Source: Halobacteriaceae archaeon (lineage in GTDB: Archaea > Halobacteriota > Halobacteria > Halobacteriales > Halobacteriaceae). Taken from it: DNA of 17,428 bases. Below the pieces are notes generated by a model. The model did not search any database. It was not told where the DNA came from and saw nothing but the letters and a program-made list of their open reading frames with translations. The stretch spans positions 1-17,428 of the forward strand of contig JBDGTS010000053.1 of NCBI GenBank assembly GCA_042216675.1, written 5' to 3'. Shown here in pieces: positions 1 through 17,428 of the stretch (positions within the stretch are counted from its first letter, which is position 1; each line of letters starts with the position of its first letter). The position numbers were made by a program, and so were the translations under genes.

Positions 1-1347
1 GGCGTCTCGGTACTGCCGGCCGATTCTGTTCCCGGCGAACTGAATCACGTCCTCGTACATGCCGACGACTTCGTCACCGACGGCGGCGGCCCCGGCGTCC
101 CTGCCGGTCCCGAGGAACGTCGCGAACTCCCGTGCCGTGGCCTCGAACGTGGCGAGTGTCCGGGCGCTCGCGATGGAGGCCGCAGTGACCGGGACCGACA
201 CCCCGCCGTCCGCCGTCCTCACCGTCGCCGGCCCCTCGACGGCCGAGACGATACCGGCCGTCGGCGCGGTGAACGACACCGTCACCGTCGTCTCGCCGTT
301 CGCGCCCACGTCGAAAGGCGGCGTCGGGTCACAGCCGTACTCGACGAACCAGTAGTTCACCTCGCAGTCCGGCACCACCGCGAGGCCGGTCGGCGTGTCG
401 ATTTCGGAGACGCGGACCGACTCGTCCGCGCGGTTCTCGACGCTCAGCGACGTCGTCCGCGTCGTCCCGGCGACGGTCGTCCCGAAGTCGAGCGTCGAGG
501 GCGTCGTCGTCAGGGGAGACGGTTCCCGCACCGTGACCGTCTTCGTCACGTCGTCCGTGAGCGGGACGGTGACGGTCCGCCCGCGGACGGTCCGCGTGAT
601 TCGCTCGGTGACACGGAGCGACACAGGGTGGTCGCCGCCCTCGTCGAACGTGACGGTGGCGACGTCGCCCGTCGCGTCGACGGTGCCGTCGTCGCCGACG
701 TCCCAGTCGAAGGCCTCGATGGGAGCGTCCATCGGCGCGGACGCACGGGCGTCGAGCGTGACAGTCTCGCCGACGGCGGGATTCGTCGGCGAGTAGGAGA
801 ACGCCGCCGAGAGCGACGTCCCCGCGGCCGGAATCGGGACCGACGCGCTGGCGAACGGGTCGAGGCCCTCGACGTCACAGAGCGACGGTGCCGCCGCACC
901 GAACGACAGGTCCTCGGCGCCAGCCGGCAGTTCCGACGGGAGCGTGAACGTGACCGTGACGCGACGCTCCGAACCGGCAGGGAGCGAGTCCCATTCCCAC
1001 GAGACGGGGTCGTAGGCCGCGCCCGCGTCGGAGTGGTCGACGACGTTCTCGGTCGGGATGGGCGGCGGCGGGAGCATCCGCGAGCAGTCCCCCTGAACGT
1101 GACAGCAGGACGACGCGGCGTCGTGGTAGTCGAGGACGACCCGGAGCGACCGGTCGGTCTCGTTTCGCACCGTCACCGCGAGCGTCGCCTCCTCGCCCGG
1201 TCCGGACGGCACCTCGCCAACGAGCGACACGTCGAGCGAGAGCGCCTCGGCGGCGGCGCTCACCGTGGTCGTGGCGAGGGCACCGGCGCCGAGTGTGCCG
1301 GCAGACCCGCGAAGCAAGGCTCGGCGACGGAGCGACAGGTCCGACAT
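1..1347 (-). CDS. Tat-exported multidomain protein (PKD domain plus Ig-like/ASH-type domain), 3'-truncated by the window edge
   Basis: Hand-translated from ATG at 1347: MSDLSLRRRALLRGSAGTLGAGALATTTVSA (twin-arginine signal). No in-frame stop down to base 1 (449 codons). PKD-like segment AAFSYSPTNPAVGETVTLDARAS..IEAFDWDVGDDGTVDATG..TFDEGGDHPVSLRVT, then PSTLDFGTTVAGTTRTTSLSVEN..TVTVSFTAP. Absent from the ORF track because there is no stop in the window. Confidence 0.85.
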   Translation of the reverse strand, partial: MSDLSLRRRALLRGSAGTLGAGALATTTVSAAAEALSLDVSLVGEVPSGPGEEATLAVTVRNETDRSLRVVLDYHDAASSCCHVQGDCSRMLPPPPIPTENVVDHSDAGAAYDPVSWEWDSLPAGSERRVTVTFTLPSELPAGAEDLSFGAAAPSLCDVEGLDPFASASVPIPAAGTSLSAAFSYSPTNPAVGETVTLDARASAPMDAPIEAFDWDVGDDGTVDATGDVATVTFDEGGDHPVSLRVTERITRTVRGRTVTVPLTDDVTKTVTVREPSPLTTTPSTLDFGTTVAGTTRTTSLSVENRADESVRVSEIDTPTGLAVVPDCEVNYWFVEYGCDPTPPFDVGANGETTVTVSFTAPTAGIVSAVEGPATVRTADGGVSVPVTAASIASARTLATFEATAREFATFLGTGRDAGAAAVGDEVVGMYEDVIQFAGNRIGRQYRDA

Positions 1348-1433
1348 GTCGCAGCGGTGGCAGACGCGATCCTAAAGCGTGGCGTTCGCGAGCGACCGGC
1401 ACCCTTAATCGGGCACCGGCCCCACCGTCGCGC

Positions 1434-2732
1434 ATGGTTCTCATCGCCGACGCGACGCTCCCGGACGGGCGGACGCGGGACGTGCGCGTCGCCGACGGGC
1501 GCATCGACGCCGTGGGCGAGTCGCTCGACGGCGCCCCGGTGGTGGACGCGGCGGGCAGGCACCTCCTCCCCGGGATGATAGACGTCCACGTCCACTTCCG
1601 GCAACCCGGCGCCGCGCACAAGGAGACGTGGGCCACGGGGTCCCGGAGCGCCGCGGCCGGCGGCGTGACGACGGTGGTCGACCAGCCGAACACCGACCCG
1701 CCGACGGTGTCGGGCGCCGCCTACGACGAGAAGGCGGCCCTCGCGGCGGACTCGCTCGTGGACTACGGGCTGAACGGCGGCGTCACCGCCGACTGGGACC
1801 CCGACTCGCTGTTCGAGCGACCGCTGTTCGCACTCGGCGAGGTGTTCCTCGCGGACTCCACCGGCGACATGGGCATCGAGGCGGACCTGTTCCGCGCGGC
1901 CGCCGACCGCGCGGGCGAGGAGGACGTGCCGGTGACGGTCCACGCCGAGGACGCGGCCCTGTTCGACGAGGGCGCCCGGGACCGCGACGACGCCGACGCG
2001 TGGAGCGCTTATCGCACCGCCACCGCCGAGGCCGAAGCGGTCGAACGAGCACTCGACGTGGGCGAGGCGACGGACGCCCAGATTCACGTCGCACACACGA
2101 GCACCCCCGAAGGCATCGACGCCGCCGCCGCGGCGGGCGCGACGTGCGAGGTGACGCCCCACCACCTGTTCCTCTCGCGCGAGGACCTCTCGGAGTTGGG
2201 CACGTTCGGTCGGATGAACCCGCCGCTCCGGTCGGCGGAGCGCCGGGAGGCGGTGTTCGACCGGGTGGTCGACGGCACGGTGGACGTCATCGCGACGGAC
2301 CACGCGCCCCACACCCGCGCCGAGAAGGACGCGGACATCTGGGACGCGCCGAGCGGCGTGCCCGGCGTCGAGACGGCGCTCCCCCTCCTGCTTGCGGCCG
2401 TCGCGGACGGATCGCTCACTCTCAAACGGGTGCGGGACCTCACCGCCGCGAACCCCGCGACCATCTTCGATTTGCCGTCGAAGGGGCGCATCGAGGAAGG
2501 CCGCGACGCGGACCTCGTGCTGGTGGACCTCGATTCGACGCGTCCGATTCGGGGCGACGACCTGCACTCGAAGTGCGGGTGGACCCCCTTCGAGGGGTGG
2601 GACGGCGTCTTCCCGACGTGGACGATGCGCCGCGGGGACGTGGTGTACGCCGACGCGGACACGGCGCTCCCCGACGAGATTGCGCCCGAGGGGACCTTCG
2701 GCGCCCCGAACGGCGAGAACGTGCGCGACTAG
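1434..2732 (+). CDS. pyrC: Dihydroorotase (amidohydrolase superfamily)
   Basis: PGMIDVHVHFRQPG, AAAGGVTTVVDQPNT, VHAED, CEVTPHHL, MNPPLR, IATDHAPH, SGVPGVET, KGRIEEGRDADLV. ATG at 1434 with TATA-like CTTAAT about 27 bp upstream. Confidence 0.9.
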   Translation: MVLIADATLPDGRTRDVRVADGRIDAVGESLDGAPVVDAAGRHLLPGMIDVHVHFRQPGAAHKETWATGSRSAAAGGVTTVVDQPNTDPPTVSGAAYDEKAALAADSLVDYGLNGGVTADWDPDSLFERPLFALGEVFLADSTGDMGIEADLFRAAADRAGEEDVPVTVHAEDAALFDEGARDRDDADAWSAYRTATAEAEAVERALDVGEATDAQIHVAHTSTPEGIDAAAAAGATCEVTPHHLFLSREDLSELGTFGRMNPPLRSAERREAVFDRVVDGTVDVIATDHAPHTRAEKDADIWDAPSGVPGVETALPLLLAAVADGSLTLKRVRDLTAANPATIFDLPSKGRIEEGRDADLVLVDLDSTRPIRGDDLHSKCGWTPFEGWDGVFPTWTMRRGDVVYADADTALPDEIAPEGTFGAPNGENVRD

Positions 2733-3365: not shown

Positions 3366-3570
3366 CGGTTCGAAGTGAGCGTCAGCGAGCAAGAACCGGG
3401 AGAAGTGAGCGGGGAACGAAGTGACCCGCGAACAGGCCGTGGCCGAGCGAACGGAGTGAGTGAGACCACGTTACGCGAACGGGGAGCGTTGCGAGGCGCG
3501 AACGACGTGAGCGCCTCGATAGTGCGAGCAGGGAGCGATAGTGACCCGCGAGCGACAGCGACCCGTGAGC
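3366..3570. repeat. Cluster of short palindromic REP-like units with core GA(A/G)CG-N(2-3)-G(C/T)GA
   Basis: Cores at 3377 (GAGCGTCAGCGA), 3414 (GAACGAAGTGA), 3449 (GAACGGAGTGA), 3500 (GAACGACGTGA), 3533 (GAGCGATAGTGA) and 3550 (GAGCGACAGCGA). Several are flanked by inverted repeats, e.g. GCGGG/CCCGC and CGAGGCGC/GCGCCTCG (3492-3518). Confidence 0.75.
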
Positions 3571-9671: not shown

Positions 9672-10340
9672 ATGGCCGACGGCCCCGAGGAACTTCCCCC
9701 AACTGACCGCGAGTCCCCAGTCGGACGACCCGTCATCCGCGGCGACGAGTCCGTCACGGGCCAGCGCGCGTCCGAAGCGGTCGAGTTCGACCCCGACGAC
9801 CCGGAGAGCGTCGCGCAAGCCGCGGAGACGGCACGCACCTTCGCCGGGCAGACGACGGGCGCCGAAGACACCATCTACATGCTCCGCGGGGCCGCCGCCT
9901 GCGCGGCGTTGGTGCGGGCCGAGGGGTCGTACAAGGCGGCCGCCGAGCGCGCCGGCGGCGAGGCGACGGTGCCGTTCATCCGGAAGTGGGCGCGGGTCCA
10001 CGACTTGCCGCGCCCTGTCCGTCGTCACGTCGCACTCGGGGACATTCCCCCGACGGCGGCCAAGCACATCGCGCGCGTCGGCGGCGACGCGCGCTACCAG
10101 CTCGCGTGGGCCGTCCTCGATGGGGACCTGACGGTGCGGGAGGTGCGCTCTATCGCGAGCGACGTGAACGACGGTACCCCCGTCGAGGACGCCCTCCGAA
10201 AGCACGGCGTCACCCCGGGCGAACTCTCCATGGTGTTGCCCACCGACGCGTATCGGGAGCTCCGCCGCCGCGCGGCACTCGAAGACGACACCCCCGGGGA
10301 CATCGTCGCCGACGCCCTGCGGGAGTCGTTCGACCTGTGA
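9672..10340 (+). CDS. Hypothetical DNA-binding protein (ParB/Spo0J-like HTH region plus C-terminal ribbon-helix-helix-like segment)
   Basis: Start MADGPEELPP at 9672; SYKAAAERAGG..FIRKWARVHDLPRPVRRHVALGDIPPTAAKHIA..GDLTVREVRSI; C-terminal LSMVLPTDAYRELRRRAALEDDTPGDIVADAL. The CDS is well supported; the fold call is inference. Confidence 0.75.
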   Translation: MADGPEELPPTDRESPVGRPVIRGDESVTGQRASEAVEFDPDDPESVAQAAETARTFAGQTTGAEDTIYMLRGAAACAALVRAEGSYKAAAERAGGEATVPFIRKWARVHDLPRPVRRHVALGDIPPTAAKHIARVGGDARYQLAWAVLDGDLTVREVRSIASDVNDGTPVEDALRKHGVTPGELSMVLPTDAYRELRRRAALEDDTPGDIVADALRESFDL

Positions 10341-10370
10341 GGCGAAACCGGCCGACGGAGAACCCGCAAG

Positions 10371-10378
10371 TATTTATT
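10371..10378 (+). promoter_or_regulatory. Probable TATA box of the tRNA-Lys gene
   Basis: AT-rich TATTTATT in GC-rich DNA, 24-31 bp upstream of the mature tRNA 5' end. Confidence 0.55.
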
Positions 10379-10401
10379 TCGGCGGCCGGATTTTCCCGAT
10401 A

Positions 10402-10507
10402 GGGCCGATAGCTCAGACTGGCAGAGCGTCTGGCTTTTAGCGCGGTTACCCACTGGGTGACGGCGGAAGACACCAGACGGTCGGGGGTTCAAATCCCTCT
10501 CGGCCCG
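10402..10507 (+). tRNA. tRNA-Lys(UUU) with a 32-nt intron at position 37/38 (10440-10471)
   Basis: Acceptor stem GGGCCGA/TCGGCCC plus discriminator G; D arm GCTC..GAGC; anticodon stem TCTGG/CCAGA with CT-TTT-A|intron|A; T loop GTTCAAATC. BHB motif: bulges TA^G and AC^A around helix CTTT/GAAG. CCA not encoded. Confidence 0.93.
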
Positions 10508-10736
10508 CTCATACTCGGCGACGCTGGCTCGGCAGCGTCGTCTCCGTTCGGGACGTGGGATTTGAAGCAGGGAGCGGTAGCGACCGGGGTTCAAATCCCT
10601 CTCGGCCCGCTTTCTGACGAACGAAGTGAGTCGAACGCGGCGCGTGAGGATTGAACGAGACGACGGCTCTGCCGTCGGCGTCGTTCAAATCCCTCTCGGC
10701 CCGCTCATACTCGGCGACGCTGGCTCGGCAGCGTCG
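10484..10736 (+). repeat. Triplicated tRNA-Lys 3' end with intervening hairpin modules
   Basis: GTTCAAATCCCTCTCGGCCCGCT starts at 10487, 10589 and 10683. 10487-10540 and 10683-10736 are identical over 54 bp; 10586-10611 equals 10484-10509 (26 bp). Confidence 0.92.
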
Positions 10737-10790
10737 CCGTCGGGCAGACGGACCGTTACTGTTAGGACGCGGGCATGCGAGGCGACGGAC

Positions 10791-10991
10791 ATGGACACCG
10801 CAGTCTTCGACGACGAACTGAGCATCATCGGGACGGGCGTCGGCGTCTACCTCGCCCTCGCGGGCGTCGCGTCGCTCGTCGGGATGCCGTGGCAGTACGG
10901 AACCAGTAGCGTCGCGGCGGCAGGACAGATCGTCGGCGCACTCGCGCTCATCGCCCTCGGAGTCGGGCTGGCGCGCCTCGTGACTCAGTAG
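10791..10991 (+). CDS. Small membrane protein (two hydrophobic segments, 66 aa)
   Basis: MDTAVFDDELSIIGTGVGVYLALAGVASLVGMPWQY..IVGALALIALGVGLARLVTQ. Confidence 0.7.
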   Translation: MDTAVFDDELSIIGTGVGVYLALAGVASLVGMPWQYGTSSVAAAGQIVGALALIALGVGLARLVTQ

Positions 10992-11791
10992 CGCGACGGG
11001 AGATACGCCATCCCGAGGAGGAGGATGGCCGTGAGACCGCTGAGGATGCTGACGCCCCAGAGGCCGTTGACCCGTTCGGTGAAGTACTGGTTGCGGTCCA
11101 CCGACTCCTGATACTCGTGGAAGTTCGTGGAGAGGACGACTTCGCTCCCGGAGGGGAAGTGCGCGAGATAGGTGGTGTCGCCCAGCGTGACGTTCGCCCC
11201 CTCGGCGGCGGAGACGGACTTGTCACGCGGCGCGGTCCACGTCAGCACCGCCCGCTCGCGGGTGAGGTTCGACACGGTAGTTTGGTTGCCGCGGAAGTCC
11301 CACGTCTGGCCCTCCTCGAAGTCGACGGTACTCGGTTCGGGGAGGTACTCCGAGAGCGGCACGTAGGAGTTGTTCTCCGAGTAAACGACCTGTCGTTCGC
11401 CCTCGATGGTGACCGTCTCGTTCTCCACGTCGGAGTCCTGTTCGAGAATTGCGGTCACGTTGAGGTCCTCGCGGAGCGTGAACTGCTGTGGGTCGCTCTC
11501 GTTCGGGATGACGACGAGGTAGGACTCGTTCCCGTACTCGACGGTGGTGTTGTTGGCCCACTGCTGGGTGTACGTGGCCGCCTCGACGGTCCACGCGAAC
11601 GTCGCGCGCCCGTCACTGAGCGAGGAGACTGTGTAGGTGGTGCCGCCGACCTCGAGCGTCTCACTCTGACTCAGCGTGTGGTCACCCTCGACTGTAATCT
11701 CCGGTTCCTCCGCCATCCCGATGTAGGCGTAGGAGCCGGCGGTGATCAGGAGGAGGACCACGGCGGAGACCGCCGCAGCACGTCGTTGCAT
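10985..11791 (-). CDS. Membrane-anchored extracellular (probably glycosylated) hypothetical protein
   Basis: MQRRAAAVSAVVLLLITAGSYAYI signal/anchor; C-terminal TM GLWGVSILSGLTAILLLGMAYLPSRY; many N-x-S/T sequons. Confidence 0.82.
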   Translation of the reverse strand: MQRRAAAVSAVVLLLITAGSYAYIGMAEEPEITVEGDHTLSQSETLEVGGTTYTVSSLSDGRATFAWTVEAATYTQQWANNTTVEYGNESYLVVIPNESDPQQFTLREDLNVTAILEQDSDVENETVTIEGERQVVYSENNSYVPLSEYLPEPSTVDFEEGQTWDFRGNQTTVSNLTRERAVLTWTAPRDKSVSAAEGANVTLGDTTYLAHFPSGSEVVLSTNFHEYQESVDRNQYFTERVNGLWGVSILSGLTAILLLGMAYLPSRY

Positions 11792-16556: not shown

Positions 16557-16632
16557 AGCCAAGGGCCGGATTTGAACCGGCGATGATCTGCTCTGCAGGC
16601 AGACGCGTTAGGCCGGACTCTGCCACCTTGGC
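16557..16632 (-). tRNA. tRNA-Cys(GCA)
   Basis: Reverse complement GCCAAGGTGGCAGAG..TCTGC-CT-GCA-GA-GCAGA..GGTTCAAATCC..CCTTGGC-T; usual distal gene of haloarchaeal rRNA operons. Confidence 0.96.
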
Positions 16633-16758
16633 GCAGTTAACCGTAGGGCCGGGTCGGCCCATAGACGTTTCGATGACGGCGCCGCGGCTACGCGGCGTGA
16701 AACGCTGAGGGCGACGAAAGGCGTCGCTCTCGAAGTGCGATGAATGAAGTATGAATGG

Positions 16759-16986
16759 AGGGCGGCGAACCACCAGTTGCGAGCCGTTGTAACGGACGGG
16801 TCTCGGCCTCCACCGGGACAGACCCTGCGTGTACTACCGATTGCCATCCTGGGCTCGTACTTGGCCTCCCTTGCGGGACAATTTTCCCAGGGGCTCGCGC
16901 ACCCCAGTACTCGTTGGAACGCAGGCGGGCTTATCTTCCGTGTTCGGGATGGGTACGGGAGTGTCCCCGCCGCTGTGGCCGCCCAA
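16759..16986 (-). rRNA. rrf: 5S rRNA, about 228 nt, with a 108-nt insertion (about 16771-16878)
   Basis: 5' part TTGGGCGGCCACAGCG..CCCGTACCCATCCCGAACACGGAAGATAAG..GAGTACTGGGGTGCGCGAGCCCCTGGGAAAATTG; 3' end GTTCGCCGCCCT found 108 nt further on. Ends are accurate to about 2 nt. Confidence 0.93.
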
Positions 16987-16994
16987 ACGCCGAC

Positions 16995-17013
16995 TCACGG
17001 ATTCGAACCGTGA
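16995..17013 (-). other. tRNA-like T-arm hairpin just 5' of 5S rRNA (probable processing signal)
   Basis: TCACGG-TTCGAAT-CCGTGA, 8 nt upstream of the 5S 5' end. tRNase Z processing of 5S via a tRNA-like element is known in Haloferax volcanii. Confidence 0.7.
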
Positions 17014-17121
17014 CGCTCTCGCGCCCGACCAGGGTTCGGTATCGTCTGGGTCGAGATTGATGAATGTAAGTGCGATCCAGTTAACGCCCGGACACGACTG
17101 CGGCAGTCATGCGGTATGATT

Positions 17122-17428
17122 GTGTGGCTTTGGCCTGTTAGTGCTCGCGGGCTGAGTATCTCGTTGCCTCGATACTTACACCCCGAGTCTATCGAACTCG
17201 TCTTCTACGAGTGGCCTCAACGGTGATTCTTTTTCAGGTGGGTTTCGGGCTTAGATGCGTTCAGCCCTTACCCCGCGGGACGTAGCTGCCCGGCACTTGC
17301 CCTAACGGACAACCGGTACACCAGTGGTCCCCGTCCGTAGTTCCTCTCGTACTATACGGACGTTCCTGTCAATCACCAAACACCCCCAATAGATAGCAGC
17401 CGACCTGTCTCACGACGGTCTAAACCCA
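17122..17428 (-). rRNA. rrl: 23S rRNA, 3'-terminal part
   Basis: Reverse complement contains TGGGTTTAGACCGTCGTGAGACAGGTC, the sarcin-ricin loop AGTACGAGAGGAAC, GCTGAACGCATCTAAG and CTAACAGGCCAAAGCCAC. The 3' end is approximate. Confidence 0.97.

Follow-up and report, generated by a model that had tools for sequence, protein, structure and literature searches.

What occupies the DNA behind the tRNA-Lys gene in the 17,428-nt window, the whole stretch of a Halobacteriaceae genome analysed here? tRNA genes are classic landing sites of mobile DNA, and their known occupants are kilobase elements carrying their own integrase. At this locus the T-loop-to-3'-end segment of tRNA-Lys recurs 102 and 196 nt downstream, and each extra copy is accompanied by an antisense arm of its own. 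The earlier note, which described this arrangement, proposed non-autonomous elements of about 100 bp or an array yielding small RNAs from the pre-tRNA trailer; sequence comparison reproduced the coordinates that it gave for the repeats, the arms and the cargo hairpins. The units may be mobile cassettes, parts of the tRNA transcript, or remnants of other events.

The tRNA-Lys locus

The following features make up the locus.

10371..10379, + strand: AT-rich box TATTTATTT, 23-31 nt 5' of tRNA-Lys
10402..10507, + strand: tRNA-Lys(UUU) gene (Rfam RF00005, 56.9 bits, E 2.3e-11)
10487..10540, + strand: 3'-end copy 1 with 31 nt of native trailer including a hairpin; first copy of a perfect 54-nt repeat
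10549..10566, + strand: antisense arm of unit 1 (inverted repeat; predicted fold)
10567..10588, + strand: cargo of unit 1, type A, consisting of GCAGGGAG, a short apex hairpin and CGACCGGGG (motif search of relatives and of the genome collection)
10589..10611, + strand: 3'-end copy 2, 23 nt, exact (repeat comparison)
10612..10636, + strand: trailer of unit 2, pyrimidine-rich, with a small hairpin whose loop is GAACGAAGTGA (predicted fold)
10637..10658, + strand: antisense arm of unit 2 (sequence and predicted fold)
10659..10682, + strand: cargo of unit 2, type B, consisting of GAGAC, the hairpin CGACGGC-TCT-GCCGTCG and GCGTC (predicted fold)
10683..10736, + strand: 3'-end copy 3 with the native trailer hairpin; second copy of the perfect 54-nt repeat, on a unitig at double depth

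The tRNA-Lys gene contains an intron, a 33-nt insertion at about 10440-10472 in the Rfam alignment, located after the anticodon loop CUUUUA; ARAGORN calls tRNA-Lys (ttt) only if introns are allowed. Judging from its sequence, the AT-rich box is likely an archaeal TATA-type promoter of this gene, and no comparable box was found on reading the window sequence in the interior of the array. The first 3'-end copy comprises G53, the T-loop, the 3' strand of the T-stem, the 3' strand of the acceptor stem and the discriminator, and extends to 10509. The 23-mer that runs from G53 to the second base beyond the discriminator starts at 10487, 10589 and 10683, with a spacing of 102 and 94 nt, and the outer 54-nt repeats (10487-10540 and 10683-10736) are 100% identical, reaching 33 nt beyond the tRNA end. 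In unit 1, GGGATTTGAA (10557-10566) is the exact complement of 10590-10599, which contains the T-loop and three bases of the T-stem, and the part of the arm 5' of 10557 is a degenerate complement of the acceptor strand. In unit 2, GGATTGAACGA (10648-10658) lies opposite 10681-10692, including the T-loop, with one bulge, and the lower stem of the arm lies opposite the acceptor strand.

The ORFs of the window encode DUF7119, MsrA, FG-GAP, DUF7405 and GNAT proteins. As the earlier note stated, no integrase is encoded there: the window contains no PF00589 match, and the whole genome has only two (contigs C28 and C30). A t-element-like sequence in the window adjoins the 5' end of the 5S rRNA.

Mis-assembly, raised beforehand as a possible source of the array, is contradicted by unitigs from two metagenome runs that tile it. 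Depth on the unitig of the 54-nt repeat is roughly double that of the flanks (50 versus 21-23 in X1; 19.7 versus 10-12 in X2), and a relative found in a run of another study spans 10626-10838 with 9 differences. Some contig joints skip 73-79 nt, from 10499-10507 to 10579-10587; the proposal that they record excision was rejected, their sides being short and their loose ends unlike the window, and they are read as tRNA-Lys loci of other organisms or as repeat collapse.

A unit design shared across the order

Each unit comprises, in this order, a pyrimidine-rich trailer with a small hairpin, the antisense arm, a conserved cargo hairpin and the sense 3'-end copy. The arm copies the T-loop, T-stem and acceptor 3' strand of its own tRNA, and the sense copy begins at the first base of the T-loop. 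The units have a median length of 112 nt (range about 90-150 bp), contain no gene and number tens per genome; the direct repeats run from the T-loop through the discriminator, with identity to the tRNA that typically extends to 22-23 nt.

The earlier note had suggested looking for this design behind other tRNAs and in other genomes, and it was found in both. In this genome 16 of the 27 assessable tRNAs have their own last 20 nt repeated downstream, compared with 0/30 upstream, and the 3' end of a different tRNA was found downstream in 28 of 783 control pairings; chance is excluded as the origin of these copies. All of the units are located downstream of the tRNA and on its strand. Of 100 high-quality genomes from this order, 89 matched a cargo-independent pattern for the units, compared with 16 of 254 genomes from the rest of the phylum, the latter with one or two matches each. 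Of 41 relatives, 17 have the type A motif, and the genome collection contains it in at least 118 stretches, 80 of 80 among the matches listed belonging to Halobacteria. The type B frame (GAACGAGAC ... GGGCGTGG) also occurs behind tRNA-Ile on contig C24 of genome G000 and in other genomes. Hairpins with a GAACGAAGTGA-type loop number 19 in the genome and 0 in its reversed-sequence control, and a trailer hairpin module of this type opens units in other genomes too. Both units of the window, the type A one and the type B one, belong to an order-wide family of mirror units. A search of the main text of papers found no description of these units; RNAs at unit positions may be listed in supplements to published work on Haloferax sRNAs and 3' ends.

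The antisense arm co-varies with its own tRNA, a relationship that the earlier note had singled out for checking. Exact complementarity to the 4 nt that follow the T-loop is seen in 41% of own pairings and in 9% of foreign ones, and the arm score is 4.87 for own versus 3.41 for foreign tRNAs (p 3e-24; p 2e-15 after removal of duplicate 3' ends, n=80). Three tRNAs of genome G016 are followed by a near-identical trailer hairpin and cargo, yet the arms are specific to each tRNA.

Across the family, 93.8% of the cells of the hairpin are paired, compared with 85.9 +/- 0.6 in shuffles (0/500 as high) and 30-48% in slid controls. Changes on both sides occur in 69 cells, versus 27 +/- 3.7 in shuffles, with compensatory changes at 8 pairs. 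The sense strand is the better folder in 130 of 142 units, G:T is more frequent than A:C (68 versus 22), and the tandem G-A/G-A and U.G positions are invariant. On their own, the two window units have only a slight folding advantage over shuffles (z -1.84 and -3.15 for the sense strand, -1.26 and -2.54 for the antisense strand), so that the case for folding rests on the family. A kink-turn or bulge-helix-bulge, suggested by eye for the cargo, was dropped because the required 3-nt bulges are missing; the splicing endonuclease of Haloferax reportedly requires a strict motif (PMC7714728, in excerpt).

Signs of turnover at the tRNA 3' end

Direct repeats of a tRNA 3' segment are the classical footprint of integration (PMC8371274, in excerpt), examples of which are described in Halobacterium (PMC7002104, in excerpt). 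The units could accordingly be ordinary att scars, either deletion remnants or stacked attL/attR sites of integrase-bearing viruses or plasmids, and larger inserts do occur at the copies: a cassette of about 750 nt with a Fic/DOC gene occupies the cargo position in genome G003, and a 1.3-kb gene lies between the repeated copies at tRNA-Pro on contig C1 of G000. However, the two halves of the type A cargo are no more than 120 nt apart in 8/8 cases in G000 and in 121 of 123 fetched loci, of which only the G000 count is unbiased since the fetched loci were selected by a pattern requiring both halves. Seventeen fetched places that appeared to hold the left half only comprise 12 normal units with an altered second T-loop, 4 chance matches and 1 open case. 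The type A pattern had 0 matches in the viral contig collection, and BLAST of two unit sequences against phage records gave no unit-like match, the sole hit being the SSV1 integration site, which shares a tRNA-Arg-like sequence; plasmids gave one match, to pHG2 of Haloferax gibbonsii. At least 80 named Halobacteria records share this compact, structured module, a pattern that random deletions would not produce. A type A cargo that is self-contained, is not made up of the ends of some larger element and was not found in the virus collections makes a plain att scar or deletion remnant a poor fit, and we consider this origin quite improbable; the earlier note had already held that a simple att scar leaves the antisense arms unexplained.

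The sense-antisense-sense order would also be expected from two template switches. If the inverted repeat of the T-arm underwent fold-back or template switching independently at each tRNA, with no mobile element, this could also explain why at some loci the whole trailer is duplicated along with the 3' end (in the window, 54 nt; on the Haloferax gibbonsii plasmid, about 90 nt). Such local replication accidents are nevertheless very improbable, because what lies at the junctions is not random: a common trailer hairpin and common cargo motifs, which include invariant bases, are found again and again at many tRNAs from many genera and families.

The arrays contain one to three units, with nested insertions and with degenerate and orphan copies. 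The earlier note's proposal to compare unit numbers between strains was borne out, close relatives with 93-98% identity differing by whole units. A 332-nt block of units, with 3'-end copies at its borders, is present in G016 and not in G003. An apparent extra proximal unit at locus L048 proved on alignment to be a partial tandem duplication of the tRNA, with no new unit. The tRNA-Arg(TCT) gene of G016 has a new T-arm and 3' end, and the arm of the adjacent type A unit matches the new 3' end; the next two downstream copies are identical to the 3' end of the corresponding tRNA of the close relative G003, whose flanks show 93% identity. In this one clear case, a new 3' end, arm and cargo displaced the old 3' end downstream. 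The T-stem 5' strand is changed as well, which places the start of the exchange upstream of the T-loop, and homologous recombination with foreign DNA fits this event better than a crossover at the T-loop.

Among 145 units, 61 have unequal flanking copies; in 27 of these the arm resembles the upstream copy more, in 7 the downstream copy, and in 27 both equally, a bias that would also arise if unselected downstream copies decayed. Polarity of the arrays, in which distal copies would be more diverged, is no more than hinted at: when last and first copies are compared, the last is the more diverged one in 11 arrays and the less diverged one in 3, with no difference in 17 (p 0.057).

Conservation of one unit was followed in seven Halorubrum species, where the cargo scores 0.98 and the second copy 1.00 against 0.34-0.56 for the flanks, equal to the conservation of the tRNA. 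This makes a host function as much alive as selfish mobility, and near-identical cargo at different tRNAs may reflect constraint instead of recent transposition. The view of the units as non-autonomous elements of about 100 bp is therefore upheld in part: their spread, the co-variation of the arms, the differences in unit number and the compact cargo agree with it, and a unit as conserved as the tRNA points equally to a host function.

Two possible readings: recombining cassettes or parts of the tRNA transcript

The best explanation, to which we assign a rough probability of 0.4, is that the units are miniature, partly domesticated cassettes, non-autonomous and folding on one strand, for which the T-loop of the tRNA is the site of recombination. 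A block consisting of the 3'-end copy, trailer hairpin, antisense arm and cargo would enter at the T-loop of the tRNA gene and supply the working 3' end, pushing the old one downstream in the manner of tRNA-targeting integrative elements. Recombination at the repeated 3' ends would let the arrays shrink, swap and spread between strains. On one strand, the arm and the 3'-end copy could fold to rebuild a double-stranded image of the T-loop-to-end segment, and this image may serve as an attachment site similar to integron attC or CTX-phage attP. T-loop entry as a general rule, the single-strand fold as the active form, the involvement of an enzyme and a host benefit, such as a co-transcribed trailer structure, are parts of this reading that we infer. 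Counting against the cassettes, a double-stranded circle of about 100 bp is physically implausible and the contigs of the DNA runs revealed no excised form, and with no integrase in the window and two PF00589 matches in the genome, a candidate enzyme was not found.

Comparison with known systems gives a partial likeness in each case. In archaeal elements that target tRNA genes by means of a tyrosine recombinase, as in the units, a direct repeat of the T-loop-to-3'-end segment flanks the insert and the tRNA remains intact; the incoming copy becomes the working 3' end, which is seen for the units in one case (G016), and inserts can stack. Unlike these elements, the units are far smaller, at about 90-150 bp, and have neither gene nor integrase; they contain the att segment a second time in antisense, together with a conserved hairpin, and their cargo motif is unseen in the virus collections searched. 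The attC sites of integrons and the attP site of CTX phage are bulged imperfect inverted repeats that fold on one strand and mimic the target duplex, and integron cassettes stack beside a fixed site. The units likewise have imperfect inverted repeats predicted to fold into a duplex image of the target, but their stem is tRNA-specific and about 10-20 bp long and their hosts are archaea; single-strand recombination would hold for them by analogy. We know of no recombinase that matches the folded units.

REP/BIME sequences and MITEs are, like the units, short, abundant, intergenic, hairpin-forming and non-coding, with several sequence families per genome. In contrast to REP/BIME, the units have no link to Y1 (RAYT-type) transposases: in a co-occurrence profile that covered this enzyme family only, Y1 (HUH) transposases did not track the units, Y1_Tnp being present in 60 of 101 genomes, including at least 9 of the 11 unit-free ones, and missing in the unit-rich genomes G259, G298, G329 and G000. 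The units differ from MITEs in that their arms vary with the host tRNA and are not fixed terminal repeats, and in that their direct repeats measure 20-54+ nt, unlike a short target duplication.

An elaboration of the cassette reading, which we regard as doubtful, is a tRNA-anchored system resembling integrons. Here cassettes of about 100 nt would exist as single-stranded dumbbells, in which the trailer and cargo hairpins form the two loops and a tRNA-specific duplex image of the T-loop-to-3'-end segment forms the stem. Insertion at the T-loop would be the work of an order-wide host enzyme, with sense copy and arm alike rewritten from the target tRNA each time, which would explain the presence of one cargo family at nearly every tRNA species. 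The cargo position could also carry genes, as does the Fic/DOC cassette of G003.

The main rival to recombining cassettes, possible though somewhat unlikely on what the sequences suggest, is that the units belong to the host as RNA modules. They would be co-transcribed with the tRNA as its 3' trailer, the arm and the spare 3'-end copy forming a long hairpin on the sense strand. This hairpin could influence how the precursor folds, how its 3' end is processed, termination, or how stable the precursor is; alternatively it could be set free as a small RNA. The units would be old, vertically inherited with each tRNA and under selection, the arms following the tRNA by compensatory change. This agrees with conservation at the level of the tRNA in Halorubrum amid saturated flanks, with the strand-specific structure (tandem G-A, invariant U.G and the stability of the sense strand), with the constant position downstream of the tRNA and on its strand, with the near-universal occurrence in the order and with the lack of an AT-rich promoter box inside the window array. 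Among 151 copies that precede a unit, 77% are followed by no T run of four or more within 10 nt of the discriminator. tRNA-like 't-elements' are known processing signals in Haloferax (PMC4326828, in excerpt), and mapping of RNA 3' ends in Haloferax placed two of them downstream of a tRNA-Pro gene (PMC7237163, in excerpt).

Several observations speak against such a host module. Only 16 of 27 tRNAs have a unit, which shows that it is not required for tRNA maturation, and the variable arrays, the nested and orphan copies and the whole-unit differences look like turnover and not like a fixed part of a gene. Runs of four or more T open 23% of the units and may terminate transcription; the last copies are not followed by such runs more often (12% of 116, versus 23% of 151 inner copies), a count that tells neither for nor against co-transcription. 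The t-elements, namely the element upstream of the Haloferax 5S rRNA and those of plant mitochondria, resemble the units in placing an acceptor- and T-arm-like 3' part within precursors without being tRNAs. However, they keep a real T-arm with an open T-loop, whereas the T-loop of the units pairs with the antisense arm, so the units are not tRNA-like folds; the Rfam search of 10000-11200 at E up to 1 likewise detected no family except tRNA, and the tRNA model did not match the units themselves. In addition, Hoelzle et al. (2012) reportedly saw no in vitro cleavage of the 47 tRNA-like elements that they found in Haloferax, which also counts against RNA modules.

A whole archaeal order carries, in tens per genome, tiny gene-less structured units with arms tailored to each tRNA. 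If the units are mobile, they would represent an unrecognised route of recombination that copies or selects its target sequence in both orientations, and a new programmable way to mark tRNA loci. If they are RNA modules, they would add an unrecognised layer to the biology of tRNA precursors in models like Haloferax and Halorubrum. Under either reading they bear on tRNA annotation, on the prediction of prophages and att sites and on the assembly of haloarchaeal genomes, and mirror units are directly testable in genetically tractable species.

The tRNA-Lys(UUU) array and the anatomy of its units

The tRNA-Lys(UUU) gene of the window is followed by two mirror units, blocks of about 100 nt that each comprise a trailer, an antisense arm, a cargo hairpin and a sense copy of the tRNA 3' end.

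Features of the window array
10402-10507 (+), intron-bearing tRNA-Lys(UUU), Rfam 56.9 bits, 33 additional bases following the anticodon loop CUUUUA
10487, 10589 and 10683, 23-mer from G53 through the T-loop, T-stem 3' strand and acceptor 3' strand to the discriminator
10557-10566, antisense T-loop/T-stem before copy 2, exact
10648-10658, antisense T-loop/T-stem before copy 3, one bulge

The outer copies of the 23-mer lengthen to a perfect 54-nt repeat, and between the arm and the copy of each unit lies a small hairpin, different in the two units. The positions that the earlier note assigned to repeats, arms and hairpins agree with the re-read sequence. Its proviso of a mis-assembly is ruled out, the array being tiled by unitigs of two runs in which the 54-nt repeat has twice the flank depth; in a run of another study a relative spans 10626-10838 with 9 differences. 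The genes neighbouring the array are ordinary. Carriage by a local integrase was rejected, since the window indeed contains no integrase and the two PF00589 matches of the genome are both on other contigs.

The tRNA gene is missed by ARAGORN in default mode and called when introns are allowed. The intron (10440-10472, 33 nt) is at the canonical site, and this stretch is skipped in contigs of other community members. The tRNA-Arg(UCU) is also intron-bearing in the window's genome (G000 C18:15409-15512) and in the related genome G016, and another family member (locus L147) has an intron in tRNA-Lys(UUU). One study (PMC7714728) reports Haloferax volcanii tRNA introns in tRNA-Trp, -Met and -Gln only.

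Median length among the 145 distinct units of the fetched loci is 112 nt, with a 10-90% range of 94-151. There are two main cargo families among the units: type A, ..TTGAA-K-CAGGGAG, apex hairpin, CGACCGNGG-TTCAA.., which includes unit 1 of the window, and type B, ..TTGAAC-GAGAC, hairpin, GGGCGTGG-TTCAA.., which includes unit 2. The direct repeat starts at the T-loop; read leftwards, identity to the tRNA typically runs for 22-23 nt and then ends, the preceding bases being cargo that does not follow the T-stem 5' strand of the tRNA. An antisense T-loop with at most one mismatch is present in 131/145 units. Within the first 9 nt the gapless complementarity of the arm stands at 0.89-1.00; it then drops to 0.76, 0.53 and near background, with pairing past the gapless stretch involving bulges. 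The arm co-varies with its host tRNA, a point on which the earlier note had called for a check: an exact complement of the 4 nt that follow the T-loop is seen in 41% of own versus 9% of foreign pairings, the arm score is 4.87 versus 3.41 (p 3e-24; p 2e-15 when each distinct 3' end is counted once, n=80), and variant T-loops are mirrored in the antisense arm. At tRNAs with a G-U pair the arm is the strict complement of the 3' strand and extends past the discriminator, so it is an antisense copy rather than a duplicate of the tRNA 5' strand.

Two small perfect hairpins with the loop GAAC-NNN-GTGA are located in the window at 3408-3429 and 3491-3518 (+). The genome contains 19 of them, in several stem families, versus none in a reversed-sequence control; they form a REP-like repeat family of their own, and the same loop type occurs in trailer hairpins and cargo apexes of units.

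Occurrence within the genome and across the order

The genome of the window is 80% complete, in 58 contigs. In it, the last 18 nt are repeated exactly 91-132 nt downstream in 11 of 37 tRNAs called by ARAGORN, twice in five, and the first 18 nt in none of the 37. Under a relaxed count (Rfam tRNAs, up to 4 mismatches in 20), 16/27 assessable tRNAs have at least one downstream 3'-end copy, with 22 copies within 300 nt, and none of 30 has an upstream copy; a foreign tRNA 3' end lies downstream in 28/783 control pairings, mostly of isoacceptors. Side by side, these loci reveal a common plan of trailer, antisense arm, cargo and sense copy.

The type A pattern is present in 17/41 related genomes, with no match to the reversed pattern. 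A tRNA whose 3' end is repeated by the unit lies upstream in 11/12 fetched type A loci, and the twelfth starts within an array. Across one genome per species of Bacteria and Archaea at least 118 stretches match, and among the matches listed all 80 records are from Halobacteria, of many genera. A cargo-independent pattern, an inverted T-loop pair 15-80 nt apart, was found in 7/8 genomes of the family, 33/38 of the remaining order and 16/254 of other orders of the phylum, the last with one or two matches apiece; its reversed control matched three genomes once each. In a second draw of order genomes at least 95% complete it occurred in 89/100, with up to 42 matches per genome and none in the control, so that the architecture the earlier note predicted at other tRNAs and genomes does recur. 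The type A motif had no match in 2.9 million viral contigs, and BLAST of phage records with two unit sequences gave no unit-like match. Profiling against HUH transposases, also proposed in the earlier note, yielded no link: Y1 transposases are present in at least 9/11 unit-free genomes and absent from several unit-rich ones.

The tail of an rRNA operon lies at the contig end.

Features of the rRNA operon tail
16557-17428 (-), rRNA operon tail
17118-17428 (-), 23S 3' end
16868-16986 (-), 5S rRNA
16557-16632 (-), tRNA-Cys, without a mirror unit

Directly before the 5S 5' end (~16987-17015) is a true T-arm with an acceptor-like strand, of the 't-element' type; in Haloferax, according to one report, this tRNA-like element ahead of 5S rRNA is a processing signal (PMC4326828). 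For the units, tRNA-like folds were rejected, as their T-loop is paired and Rfam detects the true tRNA only. Hoelzle et al. in 2012 reportedly listed 47 further tRNA-like elements in Haloferax, uncleaved in vitro, some of which may be mirror units. Searches of openly accessible full texts turned up no account of antisense-armed units downstream of tRNA genes in haloarchaea.

Differences between relatives and conservation of units

The related genomes G003 and G016 belong to one genus and have flanks 93-98% identical. A 332-nt block behind tRNA-Arg(CCG) of G016, made up of one unit of each cargo type, A and B, plus a disrupted copy, and bounded by 3'-end copies, is absent in G003; unit number thus varies between close relatives, a comparison of the kind the earlier note had suggested for tRNA-Lys loci. 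The T-arm of tRNA-Arg(TCT) differs between the two, and G016 also has a different 3' end, followed by a type A unit with an arm matching this new end. Of three further 3'-end copies downstream, the first two reproduce the 3' end of the G003 tRNA exactly, and the last, a hybrid, is one base off it. A new 3' end with trailer hairpin, arm and cargo thus entered beside the tRNA and displaced the old 3' end downstream; since the 5' strand of the T-stem is altered as well, the exchange started upstream of the T-loop. At the corresponding place G003 shares the type of trailer hairpin and the imperfect arm, after which comes the ~750-nt Fic/DOC insert described below. In G016, a near-identical trailer hairpin and the same 32-nt cargo occur at three different tRNAs with tRNA-specific arms.

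The copies flanking a unit are unequal in 61/145 cases; in 27 of these the arm resembles the upstream one more, in 7 the downstream one, and in 27 both equally. Divergence of the final copy exceeds that of the first in 11 of 31 arrays, falls below it in 3 and matches it in 17 (p 0.057). Both tendencies fit entry beside the tRNA, and also a simple decay of unselected distal copies.

In G003 (L153, C1), a ~750-nt insert at ~797-1505 (-), in which a Fic/DOC-family gene (Pfam 35 bits, cut-off 24) is accompanied by a second, small ORF, takes the exact cargo position, with the antisense arm on one side and a partial tRNA-Arg 3'-end copy on the other. Behind tRNA-Pro(UGG) of the window's genome (G000 C1:58900-60977, -) a type A unit comes first, followed by a T-run hairpin element that includes a longer partial tRNA copy and by a 1.3-kb gene bearing a lipoprotein-like signal. 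Beyond the gene lie the same T-run element again, another tRNA-Pro 3'-end copy (2 mismatches) and a diverged repeat of the type A unit; the arrangement resembles a larger insertion, or a duplication, placed between 3'-end copies. Two further small element types at unit sites (L057, L066, L038, L138, L142; L070, L089) are a hairpin ACTCCC..GGGAGT within a perfect antisense/sense acceptor-strand pair, where the duplication begins at the T-stem 3' strand, and a two-hairpin insert inside the 3'-end copy with a 5-nt direct repeat, CCCGC or CCCGG. On Haloferax gibbonsii plasmid pHG2 (L135, 1348-1640, no annotated feature) a tRNA-Met precedes a unit whose duplication covers the 3' end plus ~66 nt of trailer, with 3 differences between the copies. 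In Haloferax larsenii (L096) a pyrimidine-rich tandem repeat (units like CTCTTCCCACATCTTCCCAC) starts downstream of the unit, immediately after its truncated second 3'-end copy.

One type A unit behind tRNA-Leu(CAA) is common to seven Halorubrum species.

Mean pairwise identity by region of the Halorubrum tRNA-Leu(CAA) locus, seven species
Upstream flank, 0.37
Promoter region, 0.56
tRNA-Leu(CAA), 0.99
Trailer hairpin, 0.96
Antisense acceptor part, 0.84
Antisense T-loop, 0.94
Cargo, 0.98
Second 3'-end copy, 1.00
Next 75 nt, 0.85
Beyond, 0.34

These values indicate that the unit is kept like the tRNA itself, either by purifying selection or through a recent sweep of the tRNA-plus-unit block. In Halorubrum xinjiangense (L048) the tRNA-Leu(CAA) is partially duplicated in tandem; the second copy lacks its 5' part, carries ~80 nt of inserted sequence in the variable arm and retains the conserved unit.

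Archaeal integrases favour tRNA 3' ends and use att sites that range from 8 to >100 bp (PMC8371274), and a Halobacterium study describes integrase-bearing inserts between 27-bp repeats of a tRNA-Lys 3' end (PMC7002104). Ordinary att scars are an improbable source of the units, and local replication accidents a slightly poorer one still, as neither accounts for a cargo that is conserved and compact. Deletion remnants of larger elements were rejected, in line with the earlier note's doubts about a plain scar: the type A cargo halves are at most 120 nt apart in 8/8 cases in G000 and in 121/123 at loci chosen by a pattern demanding both halves. Of 17 places in relatives with the left half only, 12 are ordinary units in which the second T-loop has a base added or altered, 4 match by chance and one is open.

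Folding and nature of the units

On 40 type A units of equal length, the hairpin model pairs 93.8% of cells versus 85.9 +/- 0.6 in shuffles (0/500 as high) and 30-48% when slid along the units, and both-side changes affect 69 cells versus 27 +/- 3.7. A G-A/G-A pair of positions and one U.G pair are invariant. The ratio of G:T to A:C is 68 to 22, or 33 to 22 with the invariant pair left out, and the sense strand is more stable than the antisense in 130/142 units, by a mean of 7 kcal/mol. This bias places the structure on the tRNA-sense strand, in the form of RNA or of single-stranded DNA, the data fitting either.

Our preferred, still tentative reading (probability about 0.4) is that the units are miniature non-autonomous cassettes on the T-loop-to-3'-end segment of tRNA genes. 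A cassette would enter beside the tRNA carrying a 3'-end copy, much as integrative elements bring one in, and would be lost or exchanged through recombination between repeated copies. Folding of one strand would let arm and copy rebuild the target duplex as a folded attachment site, and host benefit may be part of cassette persistence. The main rival, a host RNA module co-transcribed with the tRNA, is somewhat less probable: it explains conservation and strand bias equally well, but less well the arrays, nesting and turnover, or the absence of units at 11/27 assessable tRNAs. The cassette and RNA-module readings are not mutually exclusive. Something further removed from tRNA-anchored integrative DNA, namely a tRNA-anchored, single-strand cassette system, is unlikely.
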